Shown: positions 42,545 through 58,116, counted from the stretch's first letter. The stretch: 64,000 nt of DNA from an uncultured Acidobacteriota bacterium (GCA_963700145.1 OY969474.1:3456001-3520000); one strand, 5' to 3'. Numbers and translations: made by a program. The notes: generated from the sequence alone by a model not told the origin.

Positions 42545-43053
42545 AAACACCTCCTTATGTTGGCAGAGCTCAATTGCTCCGCCCAGCCGCTGCTTCTACG
42601 GAATGGATGACTCTCGCACGCAGCACGCGGAGATCCTTCGACTGTCCGCATATGGTCCTGTTCGGCAAACCGGTGCAGACCCAACAGATGCCTTCCTCCC
42701 TATAAGCTACGAGATGATAACAGCGAAGGAGTTCAAACGCAAATGCGACGCCCTAGCGCGATGTTCGCGGTTCGTCGTGGCCCGGGCCAAGGCTTAGACC
42801 TGGGCCGTGGGCTTCCGAGCGTCGCGGGGGACGACGCCTCGGCCCGGCGATTGCCGGGTGCCCCGGCCGGCCGGTTTCGATGCCGCAGTTTTCCGTTGAC
42901 TGGAGCGGGAAGCAGCTGATAGCGTAAGTTCGGCGTAGGGGAGAATCGCAGAGCGCGTAAAGCCGGAGCCGAGTCTCGGGCCGAGAGGTGAAAGCGGGCA
43001 CGACAGAGTTGCAGCTCTGCCGCGCCCTCGACCAGACAGGAGGGTCTAGCTCC

Positions 43054-43422
43054 ATGTCCAGCCGTGACACGAAGTGTAGCAACCGCCGTCTGTCGGCCCA
43101 GGCCGGCCCCTTTTCCGGCCCCTACATCCCTTACCCCGATCCGTTTTCCGCCGAGGACCACCGGCTGCTCGAGCTCCACGAGCGGGCGGCGGAGACCGCT
43201 GCGCTCCACGAGGAGGCGCGGGGGGAGGAGCTGAGAGAGCGCCGCCGGCGGGCGCGGGCGGCGGGGCGGAGGGCCGGGACGGTGTCGGCGCGGTGGCAGC
43301 CGGCGGGGGCGGCGCCCTACTTGCGGCTCTCCGGGAGGTGGCTGCTGGCGGCCGGGTTCGAGATGGGGCGGGGAGTCGAAGTCGAGGTGCGCTCGGGGAA
43401 GCTGGTAATCCGGGCGGTTTGA
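43054..43422 (+). CDS. symE: SymE family type I toxin
   Basis: PYLRLSGRWLLAAGFEMGRGVEVEVRSGKLVI; AGGAGG upstream; leader hairpin. Confidence 0.8.
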   Translation: MSSRDTKCSNRRLSAQAGPFSGPYIPYPDPFSAEDHRLLELHERAAETAALHEEARGEELRERRRRARAAGRRAGTVSARWQPAGAAPYLRLSGRWLLAAGFEMGRGVEVEVRSGKLVIRAV

Positions 43423-43894: not shown

Positions 43895-44190
43895 CCTCTG
43901 AGGAGGTCACCGGAAGGCCTGAGGATGCTCCTCCGGGGCCCGAGGATGTCGTATCAGAGCCTGAGGATATCGCCGGAAGCGCTGAGGATATCGCCGGAAG
44001 CGCTGAGGATGTATCCGGAAGCGCCGAGGATCTATCCGGAACGCCTGAGGATGTATCCGGAAGCGCTGAGGATGTTGTAATGCCTGAGGATAGATCCGGA
44101 AGCGTTGAGGACTATCTGAAGCCGTGAGGATCTATCCGGAACGCCTGAGGATAGATCCTCAGCGCTCGCTCCCTTATCCTCAGGCGTTGC
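43895..44190. repeat. 21-bp-period GAGGA array with terminal inverted copies
   Basis: GAGGA at 43900, 43921, 43942, 43963, 43984, 44005, 44026, 44047, 44068, 44086, 44107, 44126, 44147; inverted ATCCTCAG at 44155 and 44176. Confidence 0.9.
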
Positions 44191-44261: not shown

Positions 44262-45356
44262 TCACAGGTCCCGAAGCTGCCGCTGGAGCGACTGGAGCAC
44301 CTCCCGGAGCAACGTGGCGTCGGCGGCCGGGGCGACGGCGAGACCCTCGAGCGCGAAGTCGGCCGCCGGCGCGGCCTCCGACGCCTCGGCCTGCGCCGCG
44401 ACGGCCTCCAGGCCGGCCAGCGTCGCCTGCTTGTCCTTCAGCACGGCGTCCGCGGCGTTCGGGTCGCCCGGATAGAGCGTTCGCAGCCCCTCGATGTCGC
44501 CGGGCGAGAGATCCTGGCCGTTGCCGTCCGGAGCGCAGCCGCTGTTCGGGGTCCGGTAGAAGAGAGGCGGGAACCGGTAGAGCATCACCGACCTGCGGTC
44601 GAACACGCCCTCGACCACGGCCGCCCCGCTGGTGGGCCGGAGGTTCTGGTCGACCTTGCTCTTCGACCAGAAGTTCTGCGCTCCCGAGAGATAGGTGTAG
44701 ATGCCCGGCCGCCGTCCGGCGGAGTCCGAGATGAAGACGCCGCTCGGGTTGCGCGTCGGGACGTAGCCGGGGTCGTCCTCGAACCGAAACGCCTCCTGAC
44801 AGGGTCCCCGCAGGTTGACGTGCTCGTGGTGGAACCCGAGCGCGTGGAGGAACTCGTGCCGCACTGTGCCGCGCCAGGCGCTCGGCAGCTCGATGTCGAA
44901 GCCGCCGAGATTCAGCGAGCGCTGCCCGGGGCGGCCGCCGACGGGCCCGTCGGGCATGCCGAGGTTGGGGGAAATCGAGTCGGTCCCGACGAGAGAGAAG
45001 AAGCCGCGCTGGTCGAAGCTCACCCGGATCTCCGCGGTGTAGTCGGTGTCCTCGACGCTCCACATCCTGTGGGTCCCCGCGGCTTCGTCGTGGCCGAAGT
45101 CGAGGGTCAGGTTGCACTCGTTGCCGATCTGCTGGGCCGCGTCGTGGATCTTTTCGTGAAGGTCGGTCGAGCCGCCCAGGAATGCCACGCGCACGGTGCT
45201 GCCCGGCAGCCAACGCCGCACGTTCTCGATGACGAACTCCAGCCCGCCGGCCGTGTTGCCCAGCGCCTGCAGGGCTCGATCGCGCGCCTCGAGGGTGGCC
45301 TGGACGTCGTCCGGCATAGCTTCCAGGACGATAGGTTCTTCCGGTTCCTCCGGCAT
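44262..45356 (-). CDS. M12 (astacin-like) zinc metalloprotease without signal peptide
   Basis: HEFLHALGFHHEH zinc motif, SVMLY Met-turn, AEIRVSF; AAGGAGGT SD. Confidence 0.85.
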   Translation of the reverse strand: MPEEPEEPIVLEAMPDDVQATLEARDRALQALGNTAGGLEFVIENVRRWLPGSTVRVAFLGGSTDLHEKIHDAAQQIGNECNLTLDFGHDEAAGTHRMWSVEDTDYTAEIRVSFDQRGFFSLVGTDSISPNLGMPDGPVGGRPGQRSLNLGGFDIELPSAWRGTVRHEFLHALGFHHEHVNLRGPCQEAFRFEDDPGYVPTRNPSGVFISDSAGRRPGIYTYLSGAQNFWSKSKVDQNLRPTSGAAVVEGVFDRRSVMLYRFPPLFYRTPNSGCAPDGNGQDLSPGDIEGLRTLYPGDPNAADAVLKDKQATLAGLEAVAAQAEASEAAPAADFALEGLAVAPAADATLLREVLQSLQRQLRDL

Positions 45357-45543
45357 GTTACGACCTCCTTAAAGACGTCTGCGCCGCGCAGACGCCTCAG
45401 CCGGTGAGACGGACACGGGGTCGCGACTTCTCCCGGCGCTGGCGATCCGGGCGTTAGCCGCGGCCTAGTCGGGAAGGGTCACCGCGGGGCTCAGAGGATG
45501 CCAACCGCGATCGAGCCGAGGCCAAGGGCGAGACCGAGCAAGG

Positions 45544-46090
45544 TCAATGGACCTGCAGGATGGCTGCTACGTCTCCCAGGATGCGGGCTTTAAGCGCTTC
45601 ACCGGCGGCTTCCTGCGCCAGGGCAAAGGTGTAGCGCAACTTGACGAAATGGTCATTGATGCTCAGCACGTAGAGATAGGAGCGCTGCGGGACACCCTTT
45701 TGGTTGAACGCAAAGCTCGCTGCCATCGTGGGACGGCCACCAAGGACCAGGGAACTGTCGCTCAGATGGCGGACGTCTTGCCAGTGGGGCACAACAGCCA
45801 CATGGCGCTTAGCCCATTCAAACTGGGGTGGTGACGAGCTCCGGGCGGTTGTCGGGGATCTGCCGAAAGCCGCCCGTATAGACGAAGATGGACAAGACGA
45901 TGTCGTCGGCCTTGTAGGTAAGGCCGATGCCGAGAGCGGGATTGGGAAACTCCTCTGTCTTGGTGAGAGGCAAGCCGGCAAGCTCCGGCGGGAATGACAG
46001 GTGGCTGGGGCTGTGGCGGTAGCCAGCCGTTGCCGTGGAACAGCATGCGGCGGTCAACCACACGGCGACAAACGCTCGCATTGCCTTCAT
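45544..46090 (-). CDS. secreted hypothetical protein, frameshifted
   Basis: Signal peptide MKAMRAFVAVWLTAACC; continues in a second frame (EWAKRHV...SYLYVLSINDHFVKLRYTF). Confidence 0.5.
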
Positions 46091-46186
46091 TCAGGCACTC
46101 AATCCCTGGAGCTCACGGCGGCGACAACCGCCCGTGCAGTCTACGGCCATCGCCGTCGATCTCGCAAAAGAGAACCAGGTGGCGGT

Positions 46187-46676
46187 TTAAGCAGCGGGAG
46201 GGTAGCGACCGTGTGCTTGGACCCCGAGCGCCTCAAGCCAGGCTTGGTGACCTCGGTACATTCGGTTCGGCAAAAATCGCTTCTGGAGCCTCGCGAGGGA
46301 GCCGTGTTGCGCTTCCTCCGTCAGAACATGGCACCCTCGGGGTGTCTCGCGCAGAACCCACGCGTGGTAGGCATCGACTCCGAACGAGCGGGCATCCCAA
46401 GCGATGCGCTCCTTCGGAATGAATCCCACCACTTCAGATTCGATCGTGCCCCAAAGGTCTTCCATCTGAAGCGAGTTCCAGCTTCGAGGTCCGGCCCTGT
46501 TCCGTTACGAAACCGCACGTTGGCGGAATTGCAGTACCAGGTCGGCCAGAGCTTCGCTCGATCAGCCAAGCCCAAACATAGTCTACGGAAGTTGGTATGG
46601 ACTCATTCCGGACGTGAACAGGCGCGTTCGCTGGCGCGAAATAGTCTGGCCATCTGACACCGTCAACAGTCGTCAT
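46187..46676 (-). CDS. SRPBCC/START-like protein, frameshifted
   Basis: WPDYFAPANAPVHVRNE, WPTWY, GTRFRWKTFG, ERIAWDA..FGVDAYHAW. Confidence 0.7.
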
Positions 46677-46818
46677 GAAGTGTCCCGTTTGAGCTGGGAA
46701 GGCCCTTCAGCGAGCCGCCTACTCCAAAGAGACGGACCAACCTGGGGTTTCACTCAAGCGCCTGTGCGGACCATCATCCCGTGATGGGCCTGTGAGTTTT
46801 TGACGGTGGCTGCGATCA

Positions 46819-47168
46819 TCATTTGATCTCCACGAAATACGTAACCAACCGCTTGATCTTGCCGCGTTGCATGACGAAGACGTCGCAAAACACTGCGCTC
46901 AGGAAGCCGCCGGCCCGTCTCTGGGAGCGCACCGAGCCTTCCGCGACGACGACATCGTCCTCTTCGGTCATTCGCGTGACGGTGATGGTCGGGCTGCCGA
47001 CGAACGCAGCGTTCTCGATTTCCTTGTCGAAGGCTTCCTTGCCAATCAAGTGGAGTACACGGGCATCTCCCATTCGATGTCATCAGTCAGGCAAGACAAG
47101 ATCAGCTCATGGTCGCTTCGCCTGAAGCCGTCCATGTACTTCTCCACCGTTCTTTTGTTCTCGGTCAT
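46819..47168 (-). CDS. NTF2/SnoaL-like protein, frameshifted
   Basis: MTENKRTVEKYMDGF..DHELILSCLTDDIEW...VVVAEG...FCDVFVM..GKIKRL. Confidence 0.75.
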
Positions 47169-47171
47169 GGG

Positions 47172-47585
47172 TCAAGGCGGATCGACCGAGTCCGCGGGCA
47201 CCATCGCGATATCGACGGGAGCGCCCGGGTTGTGGCTTCGGATGACGAATTCGTCGTCGTCGAGCGTCAGGATGTCGACGCGATACGGAATGGACTCCTC
47301 GACCATGACGAGGCCGTCTTCCGTTCGGACCAGGACCCGACCATGGGCTTGTTGCCCGGCGACGTGATCACGAGGGTGCCGTCCGAGAGGAATGCGTCGA
47401 GGGTGCCTCCGCGACCGCCGATGAGCGGGCGACCCGCCAGACGCGGTCGACAAAGCTGCCGGGCGCTCCGAAGCGCGGGGGGCCGGTGGCGCGACCGGAG
47501 GAGGAGGATCGGGCGGTCGAGAGCAAGCCAGGACGGCCAGTAGGCCGAGTGCCGTAACGAAGCGCCGGCTCGACCGGATCGTCAT
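47172..47585 (-). CDS. lipoprotein, frameshifted
   Basis: Lipobox LAVLAC; FVDRVWRV and FLSDGTLVI segments lie in different frames. Confidence 0.5.
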   Translation of the reverse strand: MTIRSSRRFVTALGLLAVLACSRPPDPPPPVAPPAPRASERPAALSTASGGSPAHRRSRRHPRRIPLGRHPRDHVAGQQAHGRVLVRTEDGLVMVEESIPYRVDILTLDDDEFVIRSHNPGAPVDIAMVPADSVDPP

Positions 47586-47840
47586 GCCGCGGCGTCGGCG
47601 AACCTCCCGGCCTGGGAAGACCAGGACCCCCGGATGGCACTTGAGCGCTCGAGCAAGGACCTTGGCGCGCTCCACGCCGAGGCGGACGCGGTCGTTTTCG
47701 ATGGCCGAAATGGTGGCCTGGGAGATCCCGGTCAGCCGGGCCAGCTGGTTCTGGCTCAGCTCCTGAAGCTCCCGAATGATGCGCACCGACTCGCCGAAGG
47801 CGCCGTGAATTCGCTTCTTGGCAGGGGAGTACCTTTTCAT
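47582..47840 (-). CDS. XRE/HigA-like HTH protein (orphan antitoxin-like)
   Basis: GESVRIIRELQELSQNQLARLTGISQATISAIEN..LGVERAKVLARALKCHP. Confidence 0.8.
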
Positions 47841-47897
47841 CCGAGCCTCCGGTAACCGTGAGCGATGGTAAGGGGCGACACACTCAGCGGTCTCTAT

Positions 47898-48226
47898 CTA
47901 AGTGCCGCGCCGTTCGGGGAGTAGCCGCAGGACGATCCTGACCCCCGTGCCGTCGGGGGACAGGGTGCCGGGGCGGACGCGGAAGCTGGTCGTCCCCTCC
48001 ACCCAGTCGCGCACGGTGTAGGTGGCGTTGCCTACCTTGCTGCCCGGGCAGGAGTAGAGGCAGACGACGCAGCCGGAGTGCCACTCGGGGAGGTTGGCCC
48101 AGTGGCCGCCGAAGCGCATGGCGAAGCCGCGGCGGCCGGGGGTCTTCGAGGACCTCGGCGAGCCCGTGCTCCGGCGCCCGGGAGCGCGGGTTCTCCCGCT
48201 CGTCCCACGTCTTCATCCCCAGCGCG
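47898..48226 (-). pseudogene. degenerate duplicate of the 3' part of the YdjY-like gene
   Basis: Encodes MRFGGH..PEWHSGCVVCLYSCPGSKVGNA.YTVRDWVEGTT, matching 51270-51626, with an internal deletion and no 5' end. Confidence 0.85.
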
Positions 48227-48268
48227 CGGCGATGCGGCCGCCGAGTGACGAGTCCTACCGGATGACGT

Positions 48269-48902
48269 TCAAGAGTTCGCGGGGCGAAGAGATAATCGCG
48301 TCGCAGGTCTCCAGACCTGGCCGAAGCCAAATGCCGCGCCCACGATGGCAAGGCCGGCAGCCCGCGCGGCTCGAACGTCCGCCTCTGTGTCACCAACGTA
48401 TACTGCCTCGCTAGCGGGAACAGCAAGGCGCTCGAGGGCCGAGGAGTAGGTCCGGCGCAGGTTTGTACCTAACGCCGTCGTCACCCGTAACGATTACCTC
48501 GAAGATACCAGAGTCCAGGCCAACAGTCCGCAGGAAGAGATGCGTTGTCGCCCGTCGCTTGTTCGTGGCCACCCCGAGCCTCTTTCCACGACTTCGGAGG
48601 TCAGCGAGGGTCTCTCTCATTCCCGGAAAAGCCTCAAGGCGCGAAACTCCACCTCCGTCGTACATTTTACGTCTGAAGGCGCTGCGGAATCGCTCGCCGA
48701 GCGAGGGGTCCGTGCCCACAGCGAGCATGGCTATCTCGTCAGCAGGCTTTCCGATCATGGCCAGTAGCTCTTCTCGAGGAGGGGGCTCCCTTCCGAGGTC
48801 CACCAGCGCTTGCCCGATAGCGTAGATATGGGCCTCCCCAGAATCCACCAACACGCCATCGACATCGAATAACACCGAACTTACTACACAGGGCAGTCCC
48901 AT
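48269..48902 (-). CDS. HAD-IA phosphatase, one frameshift near 48445
   Basis: FDVDGVLVDS, VATNK, YKPAPD, YVGDTEAD. Confidence 0.85.
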
Positions 48903-48952
48903 TATCGCCGCCTCGCGTTCACTATAGTTGCTTCCTTTGGGCGCCTTGAACT

Positions 48953-50824
48953 TTAATACCGCCCGCCGAAAGCACTGGGCATCAGGCCCAGTTCACGTAG
49001 CCCGTCCCCCACTTCCTGACCAACGTCGAACAAAAGACCCAGCGCGAGTCTTGCCTTGGATGAAGCGTGCCATTTTCCGGAGTACGAGACACCGTCATGC
49101 TCTCCAAGTTCTATCTCGTCAGTCGCCATGAGCTGTTGCAGAGACCCTATTCCCCAACTCGGGAGGAGATGAGGGGGGACCATTAGGTTCTCGGCCCGAT
49201 GTTCCGCCGAATTCCAACGGGCGTAGGCCTCATTGGCCGTGGCGTCAACCCACGTGATCGCGAGGAAATTGGCAGCAATACTACTCGCCTCGACAGCCAA
49301 GGCGAGAATGAATGTCCGCGATTCATCTAGGTCCAGGTCAAGCTCCTCTTTGGCGCCGCGCTGAAGGGCATGGAAGACACTTTTATCGCCGTTCGATTTG
49401 CGCCTTGGGTTCTCGTATGCCGAGTTGACGTGAGGAGCATTCGCCTGCTCTTCAAAGGAAGCTGATATCCGCCCAATCTGGTTGTCCACATTTGTCCGCC
49501 GGTTGAGAAGCACTTTGTTGTCAGAGGTAATGACTAAGCCGTGGTTGCCTATGTGGTGTGGAAACTGAACAGCATCCTGCAATGACGTCAGCTCGCGAAC
49601 CGAGTGCCAGAATTCGTCAGCCACTTGCGAATCCTCACCCAGTCTCGACTGTGTTCCATGAATCAAGGCCCACGTCGTAAGAGCTAGAGAGCAATTCAGA
49701 TTACCTCCAGTCTGCCTGAAGGCAAGGAGGCGGTACTTCGGACTGTCGCGGTGCCCCTTTTCGCGAAAGTTGCGGACCATGTCGCTTTCGAGGCGTTCGA
49801 GCAACGAGTTCGGCTGAGGAGTGAAGAACTCGGGAGTTGGCTGCCAGAGCACCTCTTCGTTTCGCCATCCCATCAGCCGAGATCGCGCCACACGACAAGT
49901 AAGAACTATAGTCTCGCCGATTGCCAAGTGTTGAAGATCCGGCGGAACAGTGGCGGCCGGGCGAAGCCCCGGAGCCTCTGGGTCAGGTACGGCTGTGCGA
50001 AGACCGCGAACCCGACTCCGGAGAGATTGCAGAAGCAAGGGAAGCTCAGCATGATCGCCATAGCGGATCGTCTGTATGTTGTATTCTTTCCAGAGTTCTT
50101 CCTCGCGCTCGGGACTCTCGGAGCCTTGAGGTGACGCGACCAGGGCGAAATGGGGTCGCGTGTGTCCCTCGAAGATTGCGGCAGCATACCTAAATTGCTC
50201 GAGAACGTAGGGGTCGGAGAGGCTGAAGCCGATAAAGAGAATGCTGTGCTGAAAGAGAATGCTCTGGTAGGCAATTTGATAGGCTTTCTCTCGATAGAGT
50301 CGTTCGTAGTCGTCGGAGGCCAAGCACCACGTCTCGGGGTTCTCGATCGTGCCGTGCAGCTTGAGGAGGAGTTTTTCGCCTTCACGGCGCTCGGCCCAGT
50401 ATGCCAAGCCAGCCGGTGTAGGAAGAAGTGTCTTAGCGTGCGGGGTGACGGCCGTCTCGAGGCACGTATCGATGTTCGATGTCATAACGAGAGGAGGCTC
50501 CAGTGCCCAGATGAGCTGCTGTCCCTCAAGAAGAGCTGCGGAAGGCTGGGGTGCCAGCTTGTCTTCCACAAAGCGCCTGTATCTGTTCAGGCCGAGTTCT
50601 TGCCTGGCTTCCTGGATAGCCTGAAGGTAATTCCCCTTTAGCTGATGTCCAAGAGCAAGGTGCCAGTTGAGTTGTTCAATCTTAAGCATGTCAATTAGAC
50701 CAGATAAGAACTGCTTCCAAGATGGGAAGCCCGCGGGTATTGAGATACCAGTGCCAACGAAGGGTATGCAGTGATGCTCCGAAAGCGCCCGCGTTAGCGT
50801 CCCAGGTATCTCGAAATCGGTCAT
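48953..50824 (-). CDS. SIR2-like NADase fused to a Nudix-like C-terminal domain
   Basis: FVGTGIS..GFPSW, MTSNID, LKLHG, LFIGFSLSDP; C-terminal GLVITSDNKVLLNRR...SFEE...QRGAKEELDL. Confidence 0.8.
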   Translation of the reverse strand: MTDFEIPGTLTRALSEHHCIPFVGTGISIPAGFPSWKQFLSGLIDMLKIEQLNWHLALGHQLKGNYLQAIQEARQELGLNRYRRFVEDKLAPQPSAALLEGQQLIWALEPPLVMTSNIDTCLETAVTPHAKTLLPTPAGLAYWAERREGEKLLLKLHGTIENPETWCLASDDYERLYREKAYQIAYQSILFQHSILFIGFSLSDPYVLEQFRYAAAIFEGHTRPHFALVASPQGSESPEREEELWKEYNIQTIRYGDHAELPLLLQSLRSRVRGLRTAVPDPEAPGLRPAATVPPDLQHLAIGETIVLTCRVARSRLMGWRNEEVLWQPTPEFFTPQPNSLLERLESDMVRNFREKGHRDSPKYRLLAFRQTGGNLNCSLALTTWALIHGTQSRLGEDSQVADEFWHSVRELTSLQDAVQFPHHIGNHGLVITSDNKVLLNRRTNVDNQIGRISASFEEQANAPHVNSAYENPRRKSNGDKSVFHALQRGAKEELDLDLDESRTFILALAVEASSIAANFLAITWVDATANEAYARWNSAEHRAENLMVPPHLLPSWGIGSLQQLMATDEIELGEHDGVSYSGKWHASSKARLALGLLFDVGQEVGDGLRELGLMPSAFGGRY

Positions 50825-51246
50825 GTAGAGAGCCCCTTCTCGTTACAGAAGTGCGGAGTCGTAATGGAGGCCCCGGCCAAGGTACAGTCGGAGTGGAGCC
50901 GGGGAGCGCGATTCAGGCTCTCGCGTACCGGCTGCTACCTCTGCTGATTGATACAGCGCAAAGAACAAGGGCCAGGGGCGAGTTCGCAGTCCTAGCAATC
51001 GTTGGGCATGTGGGCTTGGTCGCCCGTGGTATGCAAGGCCGCCTGATGGCCTGCTCAGCTGGGCAGCATCCAACCGTCGGACTCTTCGTTTCTATACGTA
51101 GACCATAGCAGGGCAGGAGCGGCTGCGCAAATGCGACCACGCCGTGCGTCGTGGGCGGATCTCGAGTTTACACGGTACCCGCTAGCCGGCGCCGGTTCCG
51201 CTGCGCGAGGGTGACAGACGCTTCGCCCTAGCGAGCAGCGGGCCGA

Positions 51247-51945
51247 TCACATCGCTCGGTGTCGCAGCCGCAAGACGATCGTGACCGGCGTGCCGTCCGG
51301 CGGCAGCACCCCCCGCCGAACTTGGAAACGGGTCGTCCCCTCCACCCAGTCGCGCACGGTGTAGGCGGCGTTGCCGACCTTGCTGCCCGGGCAGGAGTAA
51401 AGGCAAACAACGCAGCCGGAGTGCCACTCCGGGATGTTGGCGCGGTGGCCGCCGAATCGCATGGCGAAGCCGCGGCGGCCTGGGTCTTCTAAAACCTCGG
51501 CTAGCCGGAGCGGTTTCCTTCCCGGCACCTTCACGAGCACCTCGACCGGCGGCCCTGCGATCACTTGCTCCGGCGCATGGGAGTGCGTGTCCTCCCGCTC
51601 GTCCCAACTCTCCATCGCGAGCGCGTTCCCCGGCTTCGCGCCCAGTGACTCCAGCGCATCCAAGACCTGCACGTCGTTCACCGCGGCGCGGAAGAGCGCC
51701 GCCGGCGCCGCGCTGCCGCCGCGCCAGACGACCAGGTGATAGCCCGGCATCCCGAGCACGCGCCGGTGGAAGGCGCCGGCGTGCACCGTCGCCGGAAAGG
51801 AGACGGCGCGCGCCGCCCGGTCCACGGCGACCCGCCCCGGCGCCTCCTCGGCGCCCCCCGGCGCGCAGCCGGCGAGGAACACGACCGCGACCAGCGCCTC
51901 AACTCTCAGACTTGGCCGACAGCGCCTCGGAGCCACTTTTGCCAC
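51247..51945 (-). CDS. YdjY-like lipoprotein (CxxCxxxC)
   Basis: Lipobox FLAGC; GCVVCLYSCPG; TACGCT -10 box 6 nt before the GTG. Confidence 0.65.
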   Translation of the reverse strand: MAKVAPRRCRPSLRVEALVAVVFLAGCAPGGAEEAPGRVAVDRAARAVSFPATVHAGAFHRRVLGMPGYHLVVWRGGSAAPAALFRAAVNDVQVLDALESLGAKPGNALAMESWDEREDTHSHAPEQVIAGPPVEVLVKVPGRKPLRLAEVLEDPGRRGFAMRFGGHRANIPEWHSGCVVCLYSCPGSKVGNAAYTVRDWVEGTTRFQVRRGVLPPDGTPVTIVLRLRHRAM

Positions 51946-52011
51946 AGCGCCAGCGTACCGTAGACGGCGCGGCCGGCGGGTCGCGCCGGCGCCCTTGCTA
52001 CAATGTCCTCG

Positions 52012-52251
52012 ATGAGCACCGTCAGTCCAAAAGAGCTTCAACGCGACGCGGATGCCCTCTTGGACCGCGTCGAGGCCGGGGAACACCTCGTCGTGGTCCG
52101 CGACGGCCGCGCGGTCGCCGAGCTGCGGCCCGTTCCCGCGGCACAGTCCGGTCCGCGACCGTTCGGCCTCTCCGCCGGGGCGTTCGCGGTCCCGGGCGAC
52201 TTCGATACGCCGCTGCCTGAGGAAGTCCTGAGGCTGTTCGAAGGCCGGTGA
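52012..52251 (+). CDS. Phd/YefM family antitoxin
   Basis: LLDRVEAGEHLVVVRDGRAVAELRP...VPGDFDTPLPE. Confidence 0.88.
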   Translation: MSTVSPKELQRDADALLDRVEAGEHLVVVRDGRAVAELRPVPAAQSGPRPFGLSAGAFAVPGDFDTPLPEEVLRLFEGR

Positions 52252-52640
52252 GGCTGCTCCTCGATACCCACGTCTTCCTCTGGTACATCACCGCCGACCC
52301 GAAGCTCCCGGCCGCGTTCCGGGAGGCCATCCGGGACCAGGCCAACGAGGTCTACCTGAGCGTCGCCTCGGTCTGGGAAGCGATCATCAAGTCCCACCTC
52401 GGCAAGCTTCCGCTCCCGGCGCCGCCAGCCGACTACCTGTCGCGGCAGCGGGAGGCTCACGGGATCGCCAGCCTGCCGATCGACGAGGGGGCGATGTCGC
52501 ACCTGGCCGGTCTGCCGGCTCTCCATGGCGACCCGTTCGACCGGCTACTGATCGCCCAGGCGCTGCAACACGGGCTGACTATCGCTACCGTCGATCCGGA
52601 GATTGCGGCGTATCTCGTCCCTTTGCTTCCGGCGGCCTAA
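52248..52640 (+). CDS. vapC: VapC PIN toxin
   Basis: MRLLLDTHVFLW, SVASVWE, HGDPFDRLLIAQA, TVD. Confidence 0.92.
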   Translation: MRLLLDTHVFLWYITADPKLPAAFREAIRDQANEVYLSVASVWEAIIKSHLGKLPLPAPPADYLSRQREAHGIASLPIDEGAMSHLAGLPALHGDPFDRLLIAQALQHGLTIATVDPEIAAYLVPLLPAA

Positions 52641-52652
52641 CGGCCCGGGAGG

Positions 52653-54794
52653 TCACGCCGCCCCTCCCACCCGGATCCTCGCGTCGAGCGCCACGGCGTT
52701 CCCCCGCTCGGGCGCCGCGAGGAAGGGGTTGACGTCCAGCTCCTGGATCGACGGGTGTCTCTGCACCAGTTGCGCGATGCGGAGGACGACCTCCTCTAGC
52801 ACTGCCAAGTCGGCGCCCGGCTCGCCGCGGACGCCGGCCAGGAGCGGGAACCCCCGGATGCCTCGCACCAGGTCGTGCGCCTCGTGCGGGGCCAGCGCCG
52901 GCACGGCGAAGCGGACGTCCTGGAAGACCTCGACGTACTTGCCGCCGAGGCCGAACATCAGGAGCGGTCCGAAGCGCGGGTCGGTCGAGACGCCGAAGAT
53001 GACCTCGTGGCCGCCGCGGACCATCGGCTGGACCACGTACCCTGCGAGCCGGAGCCCGGCCGCCGCCAGGCGCTCGCGCATCTCCGCCGCCGCGGCCGCC
53101 ACCGCGGCGGCGTCCTCCAGGCCGAGCCGCACCGCGCCGACGTCGCTCTTGTGCACCAGCCCGGGCGCGATCGCCTTGAGCGCCGCCGGGAACCCCAGCT
53201 CGCCCGCCGCGGCGGCGGCCTCCTCGGGAGTCACCGCCACGCGCCAGGGGGCCACCGGCACGCCGTAGAGCTCGAGCACGCGGAAGGTCTCGGCCGGGTC
53301 GAGGTAGCCACCGGGCTCCCGCCGCTCCGCCGCCGCAAGGATCGCCGCCACCGCGGCGTCGTCGGCCGGGAACTCCGGCGTCGGCTCGTCCGCCGGCCGC
53401 CGGCGCCAGGCGGCGTAGCGGGCGAGCATCGCCAGCGCCCGCGCCGCCGGCTCCGGGAAGTGGTAGACCGGCGGCAGGTGCCGCCGCTCGCGCGCCGCCG
53501 CGTAGAACTCCTCGGTCGCCATCATCACCGCCAGCACCGGCTTGGCGCGCGCCGCCGCCACCCGCCCGGCCTCCTCCAGGACGCCGATCGGGTTGGCGAG
53601 GAGCGGCGTGACGTTGATGACCATCGCCAGGTCCACCTCGGGGTCGTCGAGCACCGCTTCGAGCGCCGCGCCGTACTGCTCGACGGTCGCCGAGGCGATC
53701 ATGTCCACCGGGTTGGCGAGGCTCGCCGCCGGCGGCAGGAAGGCGGCGAGGCGCTCGCGCGTCGTCGCCGCCAGCTCGGCCATCCGCAGCCCCTGGTTGA
53801 CGCAGGCGTCGGTCGCCATGATCGCCGGCCCGCCGGCGTTGGTGACGATGCCGACCCGGTTGCCCTCGGGCAGCGGGCAGCGGTCGAGGGCCAGGGCGAC
53901 GTCGAACAGCTCCTCGATGCTGTTGGCGCGCAGCACGCCGCACTGGTCGAGGAAGGCCGAGACGGTGACGTCGGCGCCGGCGATGGCGCCGGTGTGGCTG
54001 GTGGCGGCGCGGGCCCCCTCGATGGTGCGCCCCGACTTGACGACCAGGATCGGCTTCTTCCGCCCGACGCGCTTGGCGATCTCGGTGAAGCGGCGCCGGC
54101 GACCCGCGTCGTCGCCATGTACCTGGAGTCGTTCGGCAACCCGCGGTCTTCCTCCCAGTGCTCGAGCAGGTCGTTGCCCGAGACGTCGGCCTTTGTTGCC
54201 CATCGAGACGAACTGCGTGAGGCCCATGCCGAGCTGCCCGGCGACGTTGAGGATGGCGACGCCGAGCGCCCCCGACTGGCTGACGAAGCCGATCGAGCCG
54301 GCGCGGGCGGGGACCGGCGCGAAGGTGGCGTTCATGTCGACGCCCGCCTGGGTGTTGATGACCCCCATGCAGTTGGGGCCGATCATCCGCGCCCCCGCCG
54401 CGCGCACCGTGTCGCGCAGCCGGCGCTCGAGCGCTGCCCCCTCCGGGCCGGTCTCGGCGTAGCCGGCGGTGATGACCACGAGCCCGCGCACGCCGCGCGC
54501 GAGGCAGGCCTCGACCACCTCCTGCACCAGCGGCCGCGGCACGACGATGATCGCCAAGTCCACCGGGTCGGGGATCTCCGCCACGGTGGCGTAGCTGCGC
54601 AGCGAGTGGATGGCGCGGGCGAACGGGTTGACCGGGTAGATCGCCCCCTTGAACTCGTTGACCACCAGGTTGTGGAGGAGAGAGAAGCCGATCGAGTCGC
54701 GCTGCCGCGAGGCGCCGACGACGGCGATCGAGCGCGGCGAAAAGATCGTGTCGAGCGGACGCGGCGGCAGCGGCGCGGAGACGGGCTCGCTCAA
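52653..54794 (-). CDS. ADP-forming acyl-CoA synthetase family protein (alpha+beta), with internal micro-inversion
   Basis: PRSIAVVGAS, IGPNCMG, SQSGA, SHTG, NAGG, NPVD, HKSDVG, FGP, LDVNP. Confidence 0.88.
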   Translation of the reverse strand: MSEPVSAPLPPRPLDTIFSPRSIAVVGASRQRDSIGFSLLHNLVVNEFKGAIYPVNPFARAIHSLRSYATVAEIPDPVDLAIIVVPRPLVQEVVEACLARGVRGLVVITAGYAETGPEGAALERRLRDTVRAAGARMIGPNCMGVINTQAGVDMNATFAPVPARAGSIGFVSQSGALGVAILNVAGQLGMGLTQFVSMGNKGRRLGQRPARALGGRPRVAERLQVHGDDAGRRRRFTEIAKRVGRKKPILVVKSGRTIEGARAATSHTGAIAGADVTVSAFLDQCGVLRANSIEELFDVALALDRCPLPEGNRVGIVTNAGGPAIMATDACVNQGLRMAELAATTRERLAAFLPPAASLANPVDMIASATVEQYGAALEAVLDDPEVDLAMVINVTPLLANPIGVLEEAGRVAAARAKPVLAVMMATEEFYAAARERRHLPPVYHFPEPAARALAMLARYAAWRRRPADEPTPEFPADDAAVAAILAAAERREPGGYLDPAETFRVLELYGVPVAPWRVAVTPEEAAAAAGELGFPAALKAIAPGLVHKSDVGAVRLGLEDAAAVAAAAAEMRERLAAAGLRLAGYVVQPMVRGGHEVIFGVSTDPRFGPLLMFGLGGKYVEVFQDVRFAVPALAPHEAHDLVRGIRGFPLLAGVRGEPGADLAVLEEVVLRIAQLVQRHPSIQELDVNPFLAAPERGNAVALDARIRVGGAA
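54096..54146 (+). other. ~50-bp inverted segment inside the acyl-CoA synthetase gene
   Basis: Plus strand encodes PATRVVAMYLESFGNPR, the segment expected between LLEHWEED and RFTEIAK of the minus-strand gene. Confidence 0.85.
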
Positions 54795-55985: not shown

Positions 55986-57497
55986 GTGAGCGCTCGAGCC
56001 ATCATCCGCACTCTGTTCATGCTGCTCATCACGCTGGCCGCCGTGCCGCTTTCGGCCGCCACGTACGTCATGCCGAGCGACGAGACGCTGGCCGACCAGG
56101 CCGCCGTCATCGCCGCGGTGCGGGTGACCGACTCGGGGCCGGCGCCCCTGCGCGCCGGCATCGCCACCGACTACGTGGTCGTGGTGGACGAGGTGGTCAA
56201 GGGCGACCTCCCGGGCAGTACGGTCGTCGTGCGGGTGCCGGGCGGCGAGATGGAAGGGAACTTCGAGCTGCGGGTCTCCGGTGCGCCCCGCTTCGCCCCG
56301 GGCGAGCGGGCGCTGCTCTTCCTGGTGCCCAACCGCGACGGCAGCTACGGCGTCCTCCACCTCTTCCTGGGCGCCTTCCACGCCGTGCGCGAGGGCGGCC
56401 GGACGCTGGCCCGGCGCGACCTGGCCGAAGGTCGGCCGCTCGCGCCGGCCGCCGACCCGCCGCGCGACCTCGCGCGCTTCAGCCGCTGGCTCGCCGACCG
56501 CGCGGCCGGCATCGAGGCGGAGGGCGATTACCTCGTCGCCGGCGGCGGACCGCGAGCCGCGGCCGAGGCCTTCACCGCGATGCCGACGCCGGACCGCGTG
56601 CCGATGCGCTGGTTCCGCTTCGACGGCGGCGGCAGCGTGAGCTGGCGGCTCAACACCTCGCTCCCCGCCGGCGTCGGGGCGGAGGCGACCGCCGCGGCCC
56701 TGCGCGCCGCGCTCGCCGCCTGGAGCGACGACCCGACCAGCCGGATCGGCTACGCCTACGGCGGCACGACGAGCGCGAGCGGCGGCTTCCTCCGCGGCGA
56801 CGGGACCAATGGCGTGCTCTTCGAGGACCCGGGCAACGCGCACGTGCCCGGCAGCTACAACTGCGCCAAGGGCGGTGTCGTGGCCGTCGGTGTCGCCTTC
56901 ATGGACACCAAGACGCGCAGCCTGGGCGGGAAGGCCTACCACGAGATCGTCGAGGGCGACGTCGTGACCAACGACGGCAGCGCCTGCTACTTCCGCGACA
57001 ACCCGGCCGGCGCGGCCGAGGTCTTCGCCCACGAGCTCGGGCACACGCTGGGCTTCGGCCACTCGACCGTGCGGGAGGCGCTGATGTTCGGCGTCGCCCA
57101 CAAGGACGGGCGCGGCGCGCGGCTCGAGCACGACGACCGGCTGGCCGCCAACGCGGTCTACGGCGCGGGGTCGCCCCCGCCCGTGCCGACCACGCCGCCT
57201 CCGCCTCCCGCGCCGGCAGCGCGCCCGGCGGCCCCGGCCGGGCTAGCCGGCAAGGCCGTGGCGCCGACGGCGATCGAGCTCACCTGGCGCGACGTCTGCG
57301 CCCACGAGCTCGACTTCCGCGTCGAGCTGAAGGTGGGCAAGAAGTGGCGCGAGGTGCTCGTCGTCCCGGCCGGCGCGACCTCGGCCAAGCTCACCGGTCT
57401 GCGCCCAGACACCGCCTCGACCTACCGCCTGCGCGCCCGCAGCGCCGCCGGCTACTCGCCCTACAGCAACGCGGTGACGGTGAGGACGCCGCGCTAG
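55986..57497 (+). CDS. secreted matrixin-like (M10) metalloprotease with C-terminal FN3
   Basis: Signal peptide; [12 protein letters not shown]; ALMF Met-turn; Pro linker; LTW...LTGLRP...YRLRA...YSN. Confidence 0.85.
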
Positions 57498-58018
57498 GTG
57501 GCGTCTGGATCCGTGCCGAAGCCAATCAGGCGGCGCCCTCCCCGCCGCGGCGGCGCCATCAGCTCGCGGATCGCGTCGAAGACAACCTTGAACTGGTGGT
57601 CGTACCGGCGCTCGAGATCGTCCAGCTTGGCCGCGAGCTCCGCATGGGCGCCCAGGATCCGCCGCATCCGCACGAACGTGCGCATGATCTCGATGTTCAC
57701 CCGCACCGCCCGTTCACTGCGGAGTACCCCGGAGAGCATCGCAACGCCGTGCTCGGTGAAGACATTAGGGCGGTAGCGGCGGCCGCCGTGTGCATTTGAG
57801 GTCGCAAATTGCGACCTCAAGAGCGCGGTCTCGCTGCGGCTCAACTGGAACATGAAATCACGCGGGAAGCGCTGGCGGTTCCGCTTCACTGCCTCGTTCA
57901 GCCGCTTGACGCTCACTCCGTAGAGGGTCGCGAGGTCTTCGTCCAGCAAGACCTTTTCGCCGCGAAACAGCAGGATCGCCCGCTCGATCCGCGCCGCCGG
58001 TAGGAGGGTCTTTCCCAT
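57494..58018 (-). CDS. ORF6N-domain DNA-binding protein
   Basis: [34 protein letters not shown]...[10 protein letters not shown]. Confidence 0.88.
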
Positions 58019-58116
58019 GTGCGCGCCTCCAAGTCCCCTTCTCCCGGAGAAGACGGAAAACGGCGGCCCGCGCATGGCAGCAGCTACCCCGCCGCCGCAG
58101 AATGGGGGGCGACCGG

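Follow-up and report, generated by a model that had tools for sequence, protein, structure and literature searches.

One of the central themes in bacterial immunity is the depletion of nicotinamide adenine dinucleotide (NAD+) by SIR2 or TIR domains, and phage pathways that rebuild NAD+ from ADP-ribose (ADPR) are a known counter-move. SIR2 NADases are normally held off by a sensor. In Thoeris ThsA an N-terminal SIR2_2 domain is followed by a C-terminal nucleotide-binding domain on one polypeptide, and the same class of SIR2 domain occurs in DSR1/DSR2, SIR2-HerA, Lamassu LmuA-SIR2 and KomC. For DSR, NAD+ depletion is given as the defence output in a passage of bioRxiv 10.1101/2021.12.14.472415. 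Here we analyzed a stretch of 64,000 nucleotides from an uncultured Acidobacteriota bacterium (GCA_963700145.1, OY969474.1:3456001-3520000), the whole of which is called the window below and to which all positions refer. It contains a gene whose product shares the SIR2 class with all of these systems and, with ThsA, also the Asn/His motifs and the order of the two domains. The C-terminal domain is a Nudix domain resembling human NUDT22, and a gene for a HAD phosphatase follows on the same strand.

We tentatively read this two-gene module as a horizontally acquired, NAD+-depleting abortive-infection unit in which the NADase would be gated by the Nudix domain, with the HAD, or an epimerase elsewhere, as an accessory; we rate this account somewhat below an even balance.

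The SIR2–Nudix fusion protein

The open reading frame (ORF) of the fusion gene runs through 623 codons without an internal stop (Table 1), and full-length relatives of the protein share 33–41% identity with it. In the Logan contigs of a public soil metagenome run, X1, which contains 84% of the sampled words of the stretch, four contig pieces (48917-49229, 49278-49935, 49950-50307 and 50353-50566) show no difference from the SIR2 gene of the window. A preliminary description of the locus had named the intact frame and a SIR2 domain with GxGxS, TSNID and KLHG motifs, and both were borne out. Pfam SIR2_2 (PF13289) matches aa 112-253 with E 1.2e-26 (94 bits against a cut-off of 24.5), and the GxGxS loop, Asn117 and Asp119 of TxNxD and His157 of KxHG are invariant in all seven aligned full-length relatives. 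GTGIS (the GxGxS motif), TSNID and KLHG align with the corresponding motifs of ThsA, where we take the Asn and His of the TxNxD and KxHG motifs to be catalytic. The PADLOC models for LmuA, ThsA and Dsr1 match the SIR2 part only (aa 5-258); taken together with PDC-S25 and the NCBIfam Dsr1 model, all such matches are confined to aa 5-272. Best solved relatives of this part in the PDB are ThsA chains (E 1e-12 to 1e-9, aa 10-272), KomC and FAM118B. The SIR2 domain thus appears to be of the defence NADase kind, with NAD+ cleavage as its likely output. The linker that follows differs between relatives in both length and sequence. The full-length AlphaFold2 (AF2) model has a predicted template modelling score (pTM) of 0.49, which makes the mutual placement of the SIR2 and Nudix domains unusable.

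No Pfam, NCBIfam or PADLOC model matched residues ~293-618. Three strings, GLVITSDNKVLLNRR, SFEE and ALQRGAKEELDL, had led to the proposal of a Nudix-like C-terminal domain; all are present in the C-terminal half, and structure prediction of this region upheld the proposal. The AF2 model of the domain, one of five, reached a predicted local distance difference test score (pLDDT) of 73.4 and a pTM of 0.77. Searched with Foldseek, its top six matches are human NUDT22 throughout (E 3.5e-11 to 4.9e-10, probability 1.0, ~340 columns), and ordinary Nudix enzymes come next at E 0.007-0.1. VIA-align against NUDT22 yields Z 19.0 and a root mean square deviation of 3.0 with 244 of 282 residues aligned (model residues 11-314), as opposed to about Z 10 for IPP isomerase and the remaining Nudix folds. 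On the level of sequence the 20-sequence profile A2 matches NUDT22 with E 5e-4. A PDB sequence search with the 6-sequence profile A1 gave no match, and when the Nudix lobe was searched by itself, the sole match, to Acb1, was at chance level (E 0.95). In an ESM Atlas feature search NUDT22-like clusters (score 0.95) rank after bacterial hypothetical proteins. Because Foldseek, VIA, profile A2 and ESM Atlas agree, the assignment can be narrowed: as modelled, the C-terminal ~330 aa are a two-lobed Nudix fold of the NUDT22 type.

The canonical Nudix box reads GX5EX7REUXEEXGU. No such box was found in the fusion protein, and a Pfam NUDIX match is absent at E ≤0.01; the box in the window reads RGAKEELDL, with RG where RE is expected and a longer spacer. 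It had been called degenerate in the preliminary description, a label that does not fit its conservation. Among 141 domains aligned to the profile, namely those of 164 proteins whose match spans the core, the RGxxEE box is kept at Arg489 (133/141), Gly490 (125/141), Glu493 (133/141) and Glu494 (139/141). Further conserved positions are Asp435 (133/141), Arg443 (136/141), the glutamates of SFEEQ (Glu458 in 134 and Glu459 in 138 of the 141), Asp480 (110/141) and Glu512 (126/141); Glu545 and Trp585-His586 are listed as conserved as well. Judged by this alignment RGxxEE is the version of the Nudix helix proper to this family and not a decay private to the window, and the predicted metal/nucleotide site appears to be under selection in every architecture. 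Human NUDT22, a UDP-glucose/galactose pyrophosphatase, is likewise described as lacking a conventional NUDIX box in part of PMC5688067, and a passage of PMC10101856 reports that it hydrolyses UDP-glucose to UMP and glucose-1-phosphate.

Fusion partners and neighbours of the domain family

A profile search over 1.84 billion cluster representatives recovered 333 representatives of the Nudix-like domain at E ≤1e-3, 79 of them at ≤1e-10 and 18 at ≤1e-30. Fusion partners were determined by a Pfam scan of 87 of the 150 listed family proteins. No Pfam match at all was found in 39/87, and 4/87 had a NUDIX match only; a NUDIX match inside the domain was seen in 12/87, in remoter members. TIR is present in 12 proteins, three of which are TIR-STAND-HEAT proteins, and SIR2 in four, one of which (P0025) also has an N-terminal short-chain dehydrogenase/reductase (SDR) epimerase. 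EAD7 is found in three and EAD8 plus TIR in one. Two of the EAD7 fusions, P0047 and P0071, consist of the adaptor and the Nudix-like domain and nothing else. DNA-binding partners account for 16 of the 87, ten with an Xre-type helix-turn-helix (HTH) and six with an OmpR-type winged HTH (wHTH), and a metallophosphoesterase is fused in two. A trypsin-like protease, a cytidine deaminase, a sugar nucleotidyltransferase, a nucleotide cyclase, a conflict-type nucleotidyltransferase (NTase), MMPL and a weak HNH match occur once each. Stand-alone and many fused members exist without a HAD. Judging by these assignments the partners group as killing domains (TIR, SIR2, metallophosphoesterase, trypsin-like protease, deaminase and the weak HNH match), signal-making domains (cyclase, conflict-type NTase) and DNA-binding outputs, a spread typical of an input domain. 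EAD7 and EAD8 were defined in PMC7159879, a passage of which describes them as adaptors mainly recruiting effectors.

A quick maximum-likelihood tree was built from 47 of the 141 domains, chosen for a labelled architecture and a length above 200 aa. The clade of the window (11 rows, SH-aLRT 89) contains SIR2- or TIR-fused proteins and fragments only, and stand-alone proteins form its sister clade with a support of 99. Within the tree P0021, a SIR2 form, and P0022, a TIR form, are sisters (SH-aLRT 99); in P0006 the TIR domain is placed at the C-terminus instead. The SIR2 form is rare, with about ten cluster representatives.

We inspected 28 loci that encode a relative of this domain (L002-L009, L021 and L024-L042). 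A locus scan with profile A4 reaches remoter members only, and the gene context could be read for a single close SIR2-fusion relative, L003; the contig of L002 stops 76 nt past the gene. In L003 an SDR epimerase/dehydratase lies directly upstream on the same strand, 54% identical to the N-terminal epimerase of P0025, and no HAD was seen next to the fusion gene. Another SDR epimerase, fused to DUF4254, is nearby in L007 and L008. A sugar-1-phosphate nucleotidyltransferase adjoins a metallophosphoesterase fusion in L024, lies 2.6 kb away in L026 and is fused in P0065, and a canonical Nudix gene adjoins the domain relative in L006, L025 and L037. AbiE is found in the neighbourhood in L009. TIR-NACHT-HEAT proteins carry the Nudix-like domain at their C-terminal sensor end in L027, L028, L029, L032 and L033, and NACHT-HEAT forms stand beside CHAT-WD40 in L031 and L041. 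The preliminary description had presented the HAD as a linked partner, which these loci do not support: a HAD next to a domain relative was found in one of the 28, L042, where it is KdsC-like, of another subfamily, accompanied by a KpsF-like gene (Kdo-type) and probably unrelated to the system. What recurs in the neighbourhoods is nucleotide-sugar chemistry together with conflict-type domains rather than a HAD. Scanning metagenomes with the fusion protein as single query gave no confirmed relative, and with profile A1 neither the first pass over genome contigs nor the scan of viral contigs gave any.

Three of these loci deserve mention in their own right. The gene of a stand-alone NUDT22-like protein diverges, in L007 (563-1896) and in L008 (2791-4376), from a 101-aa ORF and the SDR epimerase–DUF4254 gene, and the three may be a recurring unit. 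In L024 (4861-8828), from a metagenome-assembled genome of Anaerolinea, a sugar nucleotidyltransferase, a metallophosphoesterase–NUDT22-like fusion and a radical SAM/SPASM gene stand in a row on one strand. In L006 (761-5590) the neighbours of a stand-alone NUDT22-like protein are the canonical Nudix gene and a caspase-SIR2 protein of 1134 aa.

The HAD gene and the acquired module

Table 1. Features of the SIR2–Nudix module and its borders, in window positions
Feature	Position	Strand	Remarks
SIR2/NUDT22-like Nudix fusion gene	48953..50824	-	intact ORF, 623 aa; end coordinate includes the stop codon
SIR2_2 domain, NADase type	50009..50824	-	aa 1-272; GxGxS at 24-28, Asn117, Asp119, His157
Flexible linker	49871..50008	-	~aa 273-318; AF2 pLDDT <50 at 276-286 and 310-318; variable among relatives
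NUDT22-like two-lobed Nudix domain	48971..49948	-	aa 293-618; AF2 fold, Foldseek, VIA, profile A2
HAD-IA phosphatase gene, phosphoglycolate/sugar-phosphate phosphatase type	48269..48902	-	HAD_2; split by a frameshift near 48440
Leader upstream of the fusion gene	50825..51246	-	non-coding; no Pfam-supported ORF; promoter presumed
Low-GC insertion, 3.0 kb	48227..51263		carries only the fusion gene and HAD; no match in same-genus genomes G001, G003 and G004
Left repeat, displaced duplicate of the 3' part of the ydjY-domain gene	47913..48226	-	81-86% identical to 51264-51625
Right repeat, 3' part of the intact ydjY-domain gene (51247..52086)	51264..51625	-	NCBIfam ydjY_domain, E 7e-23

The HAD gene shares its strand with the SIR2 gene, its ATG at 48902 lies 50 nt past the stop codon of the latter, and the set of four HAD motifs (DVDG, ATNK, YKPAPD and VGDTEAD) is complete, just as the preliminary description had it. 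Pfam HAD_2 matches the N part with E 5.5e-24 and the C part with E 1.2e-6. The protein stays under every NCBIfam equivalog cut-off, with 69 bits against 180 for TIGR01449 (phosphoglycolate phosphatase), and its solved relatives in the PDB are PGP, beta-PGM, AlnB, TM_1254 and CbbY. By these matches it can be called only a generic sugar or small-phosphoester phosphatase, and nothing narrower.

The gene had also been reported as frameshifted. In the window sequence it is indeed split into two frames, 48411..48902 (163 aa) and 48269..48484 (71 aa). A contig of X1 (1288 nt, depth 4.3) has an extra base behind each of 48440, 48441 and 48317 and a G>A change at 48267. The extra bases behind 48440 and 48441 coincide exactly with the frame switch, and with the X1 bases the HAD is a single frame of 216 aa with its four motifs intact, as read from this one contig of depth only 4.3. 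One contig of depth below 5 may be in error, but three indels each restoring the canonical HAD reading are unlikely as contig errors. The frameshift is probably not real, or not universal; we think that the window assembly either carries indel errors in the HAD or represents a variant of a population with an intact gene. All these differences lie at 48267-48441, the three single-base indels within 125 nt of the HAD gene, and if the indels are consensus errors, other frameshifts of this genome may be artefacts, too.

Composition and borders of the module agree with the AT-richer DNA and the flanking direct repeats noted before. GC is 0.55-0.59 over 48500-51000, and 0.47 at 50600-50749, versus 0.67-0.80 in the flanks; at third codon positions (GC3) it is 0.61 in the SIR2 gene and 0.63 in the HAD, and 0.84-0.99 in neighbouring genes. 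The repeats pair 47923-48141 with 51266-51484 (86% over 219 nt) and 48158-48226 with 51557-51625 (81%), and the left one shares 86-91% identity with the ydjY gene that relatives have in single copy. The same-genus genomes G001, G003 and G004 have a single ydjY beside the Xre/SnoaL region and no counterpart of 48227-51263; a protein-level match was found in none of four same-genus genomes. Because of the low GC and GC3, the bracketing by repeats and the empty site in same-genus genomes, we conclude that the two genes were acquired together from a lower-GC donor, which shows co-transfer and not co-function. No integrase lies inside the module. Its leader is presumed to hold the promoter of the fusion gene; neither sigma-70-like nor Rfam matches were found in it, Rfam gave no match over 45000-53000, and promoter and terminator scans stayed at chance level.

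Among 60 other genomes of the family, 31 gave some match (E ≤1e-5), mostly in the SIR2 part, and none has the SIR2-Nudix fusion, which is present in G000. A SIR2 protein of G459 was considered as a second case and rejected: its match is longer, and it has no Nudix-like domain. In G463 a distant copy of the domain forms the end of an ORF that is 988 aa long or longer. The domain profile found G000 and one remote protein only in a sample of 401 genomes of the phylum.

The same X1 contig that covers the HAD joins 51330 back to 47988 (3343 back) through 35 letters common to both ydjY repeats. Such a joint would fit a circular or tandem form of the 3.3-kb module, or else an assembly artefact of low coverage. 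Because the repeats share these 35 letters, the depth at 51337-51467 is 0.14 and the joint is seen in one low-depth contig, we do not rely on it.

Several further genes were noticed around the module. Toxin-antitoxin genes had been placed nearby, and a Phd/PIN pair is found at 52003-52640 (+). This pair of a Phd/YefM-like antitoxin and a PIN toxin is itself an insertion, as its flanks at 51877 and 52665 are ~40 nt apart in G001. An ORF with a SymE-type toxin domain lies ~5 kb from the module (42988-43419, +; E 5.9e-12), and between ruvA and ruvB stands a gene (57497-58075, -) with an ORF6N domain, which is often phage- or antirepressor-associated. The Xre-type HTH protein at 47172-47840 (-) has a long Pro/Arg-rich C-terminal extension; the middle of its gene (~47229-47511) is unmatched in G003, and its ends are 90-93% identical. 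Imperfect direct and inverted repeats spaced by 21-40 nt, with CTGAGGATGTATCCGGAAGCG-like units, occupy 44003-44165, just downstream of the 3' end of an astacin-like metalloprotease gene (44262-45356, -).

Possible mechanism and comparison with known systems

In the mechanism that we tentatively prefer, the SIR2 domain would be the killing part, converting NAD+ to nicotinamide and ADPR. The Nudix domain would be the control or input module, which binds a ligand of the nucleoside diphosphate (NDP)-sugar type, ADPR or a related nucleotide-sugar, at the conserved metal site and would probably hydrolyse it too, and ligand occupancy would switch the NADase on or off. We read the Nudix domain as the sensor because, SIR2 apart, it is the one folded region of the protein, and as an input domain because its relatives are joined to killing domains, signal-making enzymes and DNA-binding outputs and stand at the sensor end of STAND proteins. 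The conserved acidic site suggests ligand turnover, and the SDR epimerase, sugar-1-phosphate nucleotidyltransferase and canonical Nudix genes of the neighbourhoods suggest the NDP-sugar class of ligand. Neighbouring enzymes, the HAD here and the SDR epimerase/dehydratase elsewhere, would be accessory to the core, shaping or removing the ligand or its sugar-phosphate product. The proposed gating has a parallel in the SLOG domain of ThsA, or in CARF domains breaking down their own signal.

Several observations weigh against such gating. The near-invariant acidic residues suit a plain hydrolase equally well, and EAD7-only fusions favour an effector role, given the adaptor function described in part of PMC7159879. 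Every full-length partner in the window's clade is a putative NADase, which also fits an action on the NADase product. The 3-kb module contains no gene for generating a signal, and it sits in a small variable spot between genes of housekeeping type (ruvAB, a CoA ligase-type gene), not in a classical defence island. The AF2 domain model was built on a 6-sequence alignment, and the other four of the five models were poor (pLDDT 42-53).

An alternative, the main idea of the preliminary description, is a catabolic sequence in which SIR2 would turn NAD+ into ADPR, the Nudix domain would split ADPR into AMP and ribose-5-phosphate and the HAD would dephosphorylate the sugar phosphate. NAD+ loss would then be irreversible by phage ADPR-based rebuilding, with the trigger coming from something other than the Nudix domain. 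The three steps are chemically coherent, and acidic and basic positions kept in 110-139 of 141 domains are as expected of an enzyme; according to the cited passage of PMC10101856, NUDT22 is a genuine NDP-sugar hydrolase. The full-length partners in the clade, all of the NAD+-cleaving SIR2 or TIR kinds and swapping between the sisters P0021 and P0022, and the EAD7-only fusions, which suggest an effector, point the same way. So does the HAD itself, which is of the sugar-phosphate phosphatase type, similar in GC3 to the SIR2 gene, only 50 nt downstream and intact in X1, and aRES, discussed below, is a conceptual precedent for a depletion that is proof against NARP1. However, the HAD is not conserved, with a single case of another subfamily among the 28 loci, and the SDR epimerase of L003 and P0025 has no place in the pathway. 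Such a chain contains no sensor and leaves the tolerance of a constitutive NADase unexplained, its Nudix substrate (ADPR or UDP-sugars) is only presumed, and the same domain is HTH-fused in 16/87 proteins and found at the sensor end of STAND proteins. We consider it rather unlikely; the variety of fusion partners is explained no less well by a Nudix sensor gating the NADase, which the preliminary description had given as its second option.

The HAD might also play no part, the SIR2-Nudix protein acting alone by either mechanism and the HAD being a co-transferred neighbour from the donor. To us this appears evenly poised between right and wrong. L003 has no HAD, the gene is rare next to the domain across the wider family, where stand-alone and many fused forms do without it, and the window copy is frameshifted while the SIR2 gene is intact. 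Against this stand the 50-nt spacing on one strand, the shared GC3 and the X1 contig without the frameshift, and absence elsewhere is weakly sampled, with L003 as the one readable close relative. A non-immune unit on a mobile fragment would serve the turnover of NAD or nucleotide-sugars, for instance by clearing ADPR or an unusual NDP-sugar, with the SIR2 domain as a deacylase or ADP-ribosyltransferase. Family neighbours are often sugar-nucleotide enzymes (epimerase, nucleotidyltransferase, the KdsC/KpsF-like pair of L042), NUDT22 itself is presented as a metabolic enzyme in the passages cited above, and the window lacks classical defence-island neighbours. Yet the SIR2 domain is of the SIR2_2 type, matching defence NADases (ThsA, KomC, Dsr1, LmuA) best and not deacetylase sirtuins, and the partners and neighbours of the family include TIR, EAD7/8, NACHT-STAND, caspase-SIR2 and AbiE. 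The foreign composition and the patchy, rare distribution (G000 and 0/60 other family genomes, 2/401 genomes of the phylum) also speak against housekeeping metabolism, which we regard as improbable and the least likely reading.

A fusion of an NADase to a Nudix domain would add a new input domain, for nucleotide-sugar sensing, or else a built-in irreversible depletion, to the known NADase systems. With 333 representatives and many conflict-type partners, the domain family is a larger uncharted set of candidate systems, and it offers a functional context for NUDT22-like proteins. More speculatively, and with greater doubt than we attach to the gating itself, the NUDT22-like domain may be a widespread, unrecognised prokaryotic immune module that reads or destroys nucleotide-sugars, i.e. 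ADPR or an NDP-sugar made or altered by linked enzymes. If so, the SIR2 and TIR fusions would be NDP-sugar-gated NADases, or NADases that also shred ADPR against phage NAD+ rebuilding, and the human enzyme NUDT22 would gain a bacterial, immune-type ancestry.

Compared with ThsA, the fusion protein has the NUDT22-like Nudix domain in place of SLOG/STALD and no SLOG Pfam match, the PADLOC ThsA models cover only model positions 13-260 of 478, and the module has no ThsB/TIR gene. DSR1 is ~1260 aa long in contrast to 623 aa for the window protein, which reaches 24.1 bits with NF041818 against a cut-off of 1400 and in the SIR2 part only. For Lamassu, PDLC03856 covers model positions 8-252 of 433, and no SMC-like LmuB gene is present; HerA or Kom partners are likewise missing, with a Nudix domain instead. 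Membership in Thoeris, DSR, Lamassu or SIR2-HerA was therefore rejected, the matches being limited to the SIR2 part and the partner genes missing.

The domain shares with human NUDT22 the whole two-lobed fold (Z 19.0), a weak but significant profile match (E 5e-4) and the missing conventional Nudix box. They differ in that identity is 15-18% and that NUDT22 is a stand-alone eukaryotic metabolic enzyme, whereas the domain of the window is SIR2-fused. NUDT9-H of TRPM2 is a Nudix domain used as an ADPR sensor, and loss of the acidic residues is known from sensor Nudix domains. In NrtR-type regulators of conflict systems, too, the Nudix domain is described as an ADPR sensor in part of PMC9503650. 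As in those regulators, a Nudix fold reading an ADP-ribose-type ligand would control an output domain here, and 16/87 relatives are fused to HTH or wHTH; unlike them, the domain belongs to another Nudix clade, its output would be a NADase and its acidic residues are retained. The aRES system, a RES domain, is reported in part of bioRxiv 10.64898/2026.01.28.702374 to deplete NAD+ to ADPR-1''-phosphate, which NARP1 cannot use; its fold and chemistry are unrelated, and the likeness is conceptual and applies only if the module is a catabolic sink. Kaur et al. 2020 (eLife, PMC7159879) place Nudix, in a passage of their text, among the enzymatic domains possibly acting on ADPr/NAD+ in NTP-dependent conflict systems, and relatives of the window's domain carry the EAD7 and EAD8 described there. 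The available text of PMC7159879 and PMC9503650 lists Nudix in conflict systems generally, and their figures and tables may already include this clade. In the literature searched, the terms 'SIR2-Nudix' and 'TIR-Nudix' are absent and NUDT22 is nowhere linked to phage defence; judged by title and abstract, six papers naming NUDT22 as well as phage have nothing to do with defence. No PADLOC, NCBIfam or Pfam model covers the SIR2-Nudix architecture, in line with the early remark that it belongs to no named system. Set beside these systems, the fusion is plausibly an undescribed variant of the NAD-depleting anti-phage systems, a candidate defence NADase with a new partner domain.

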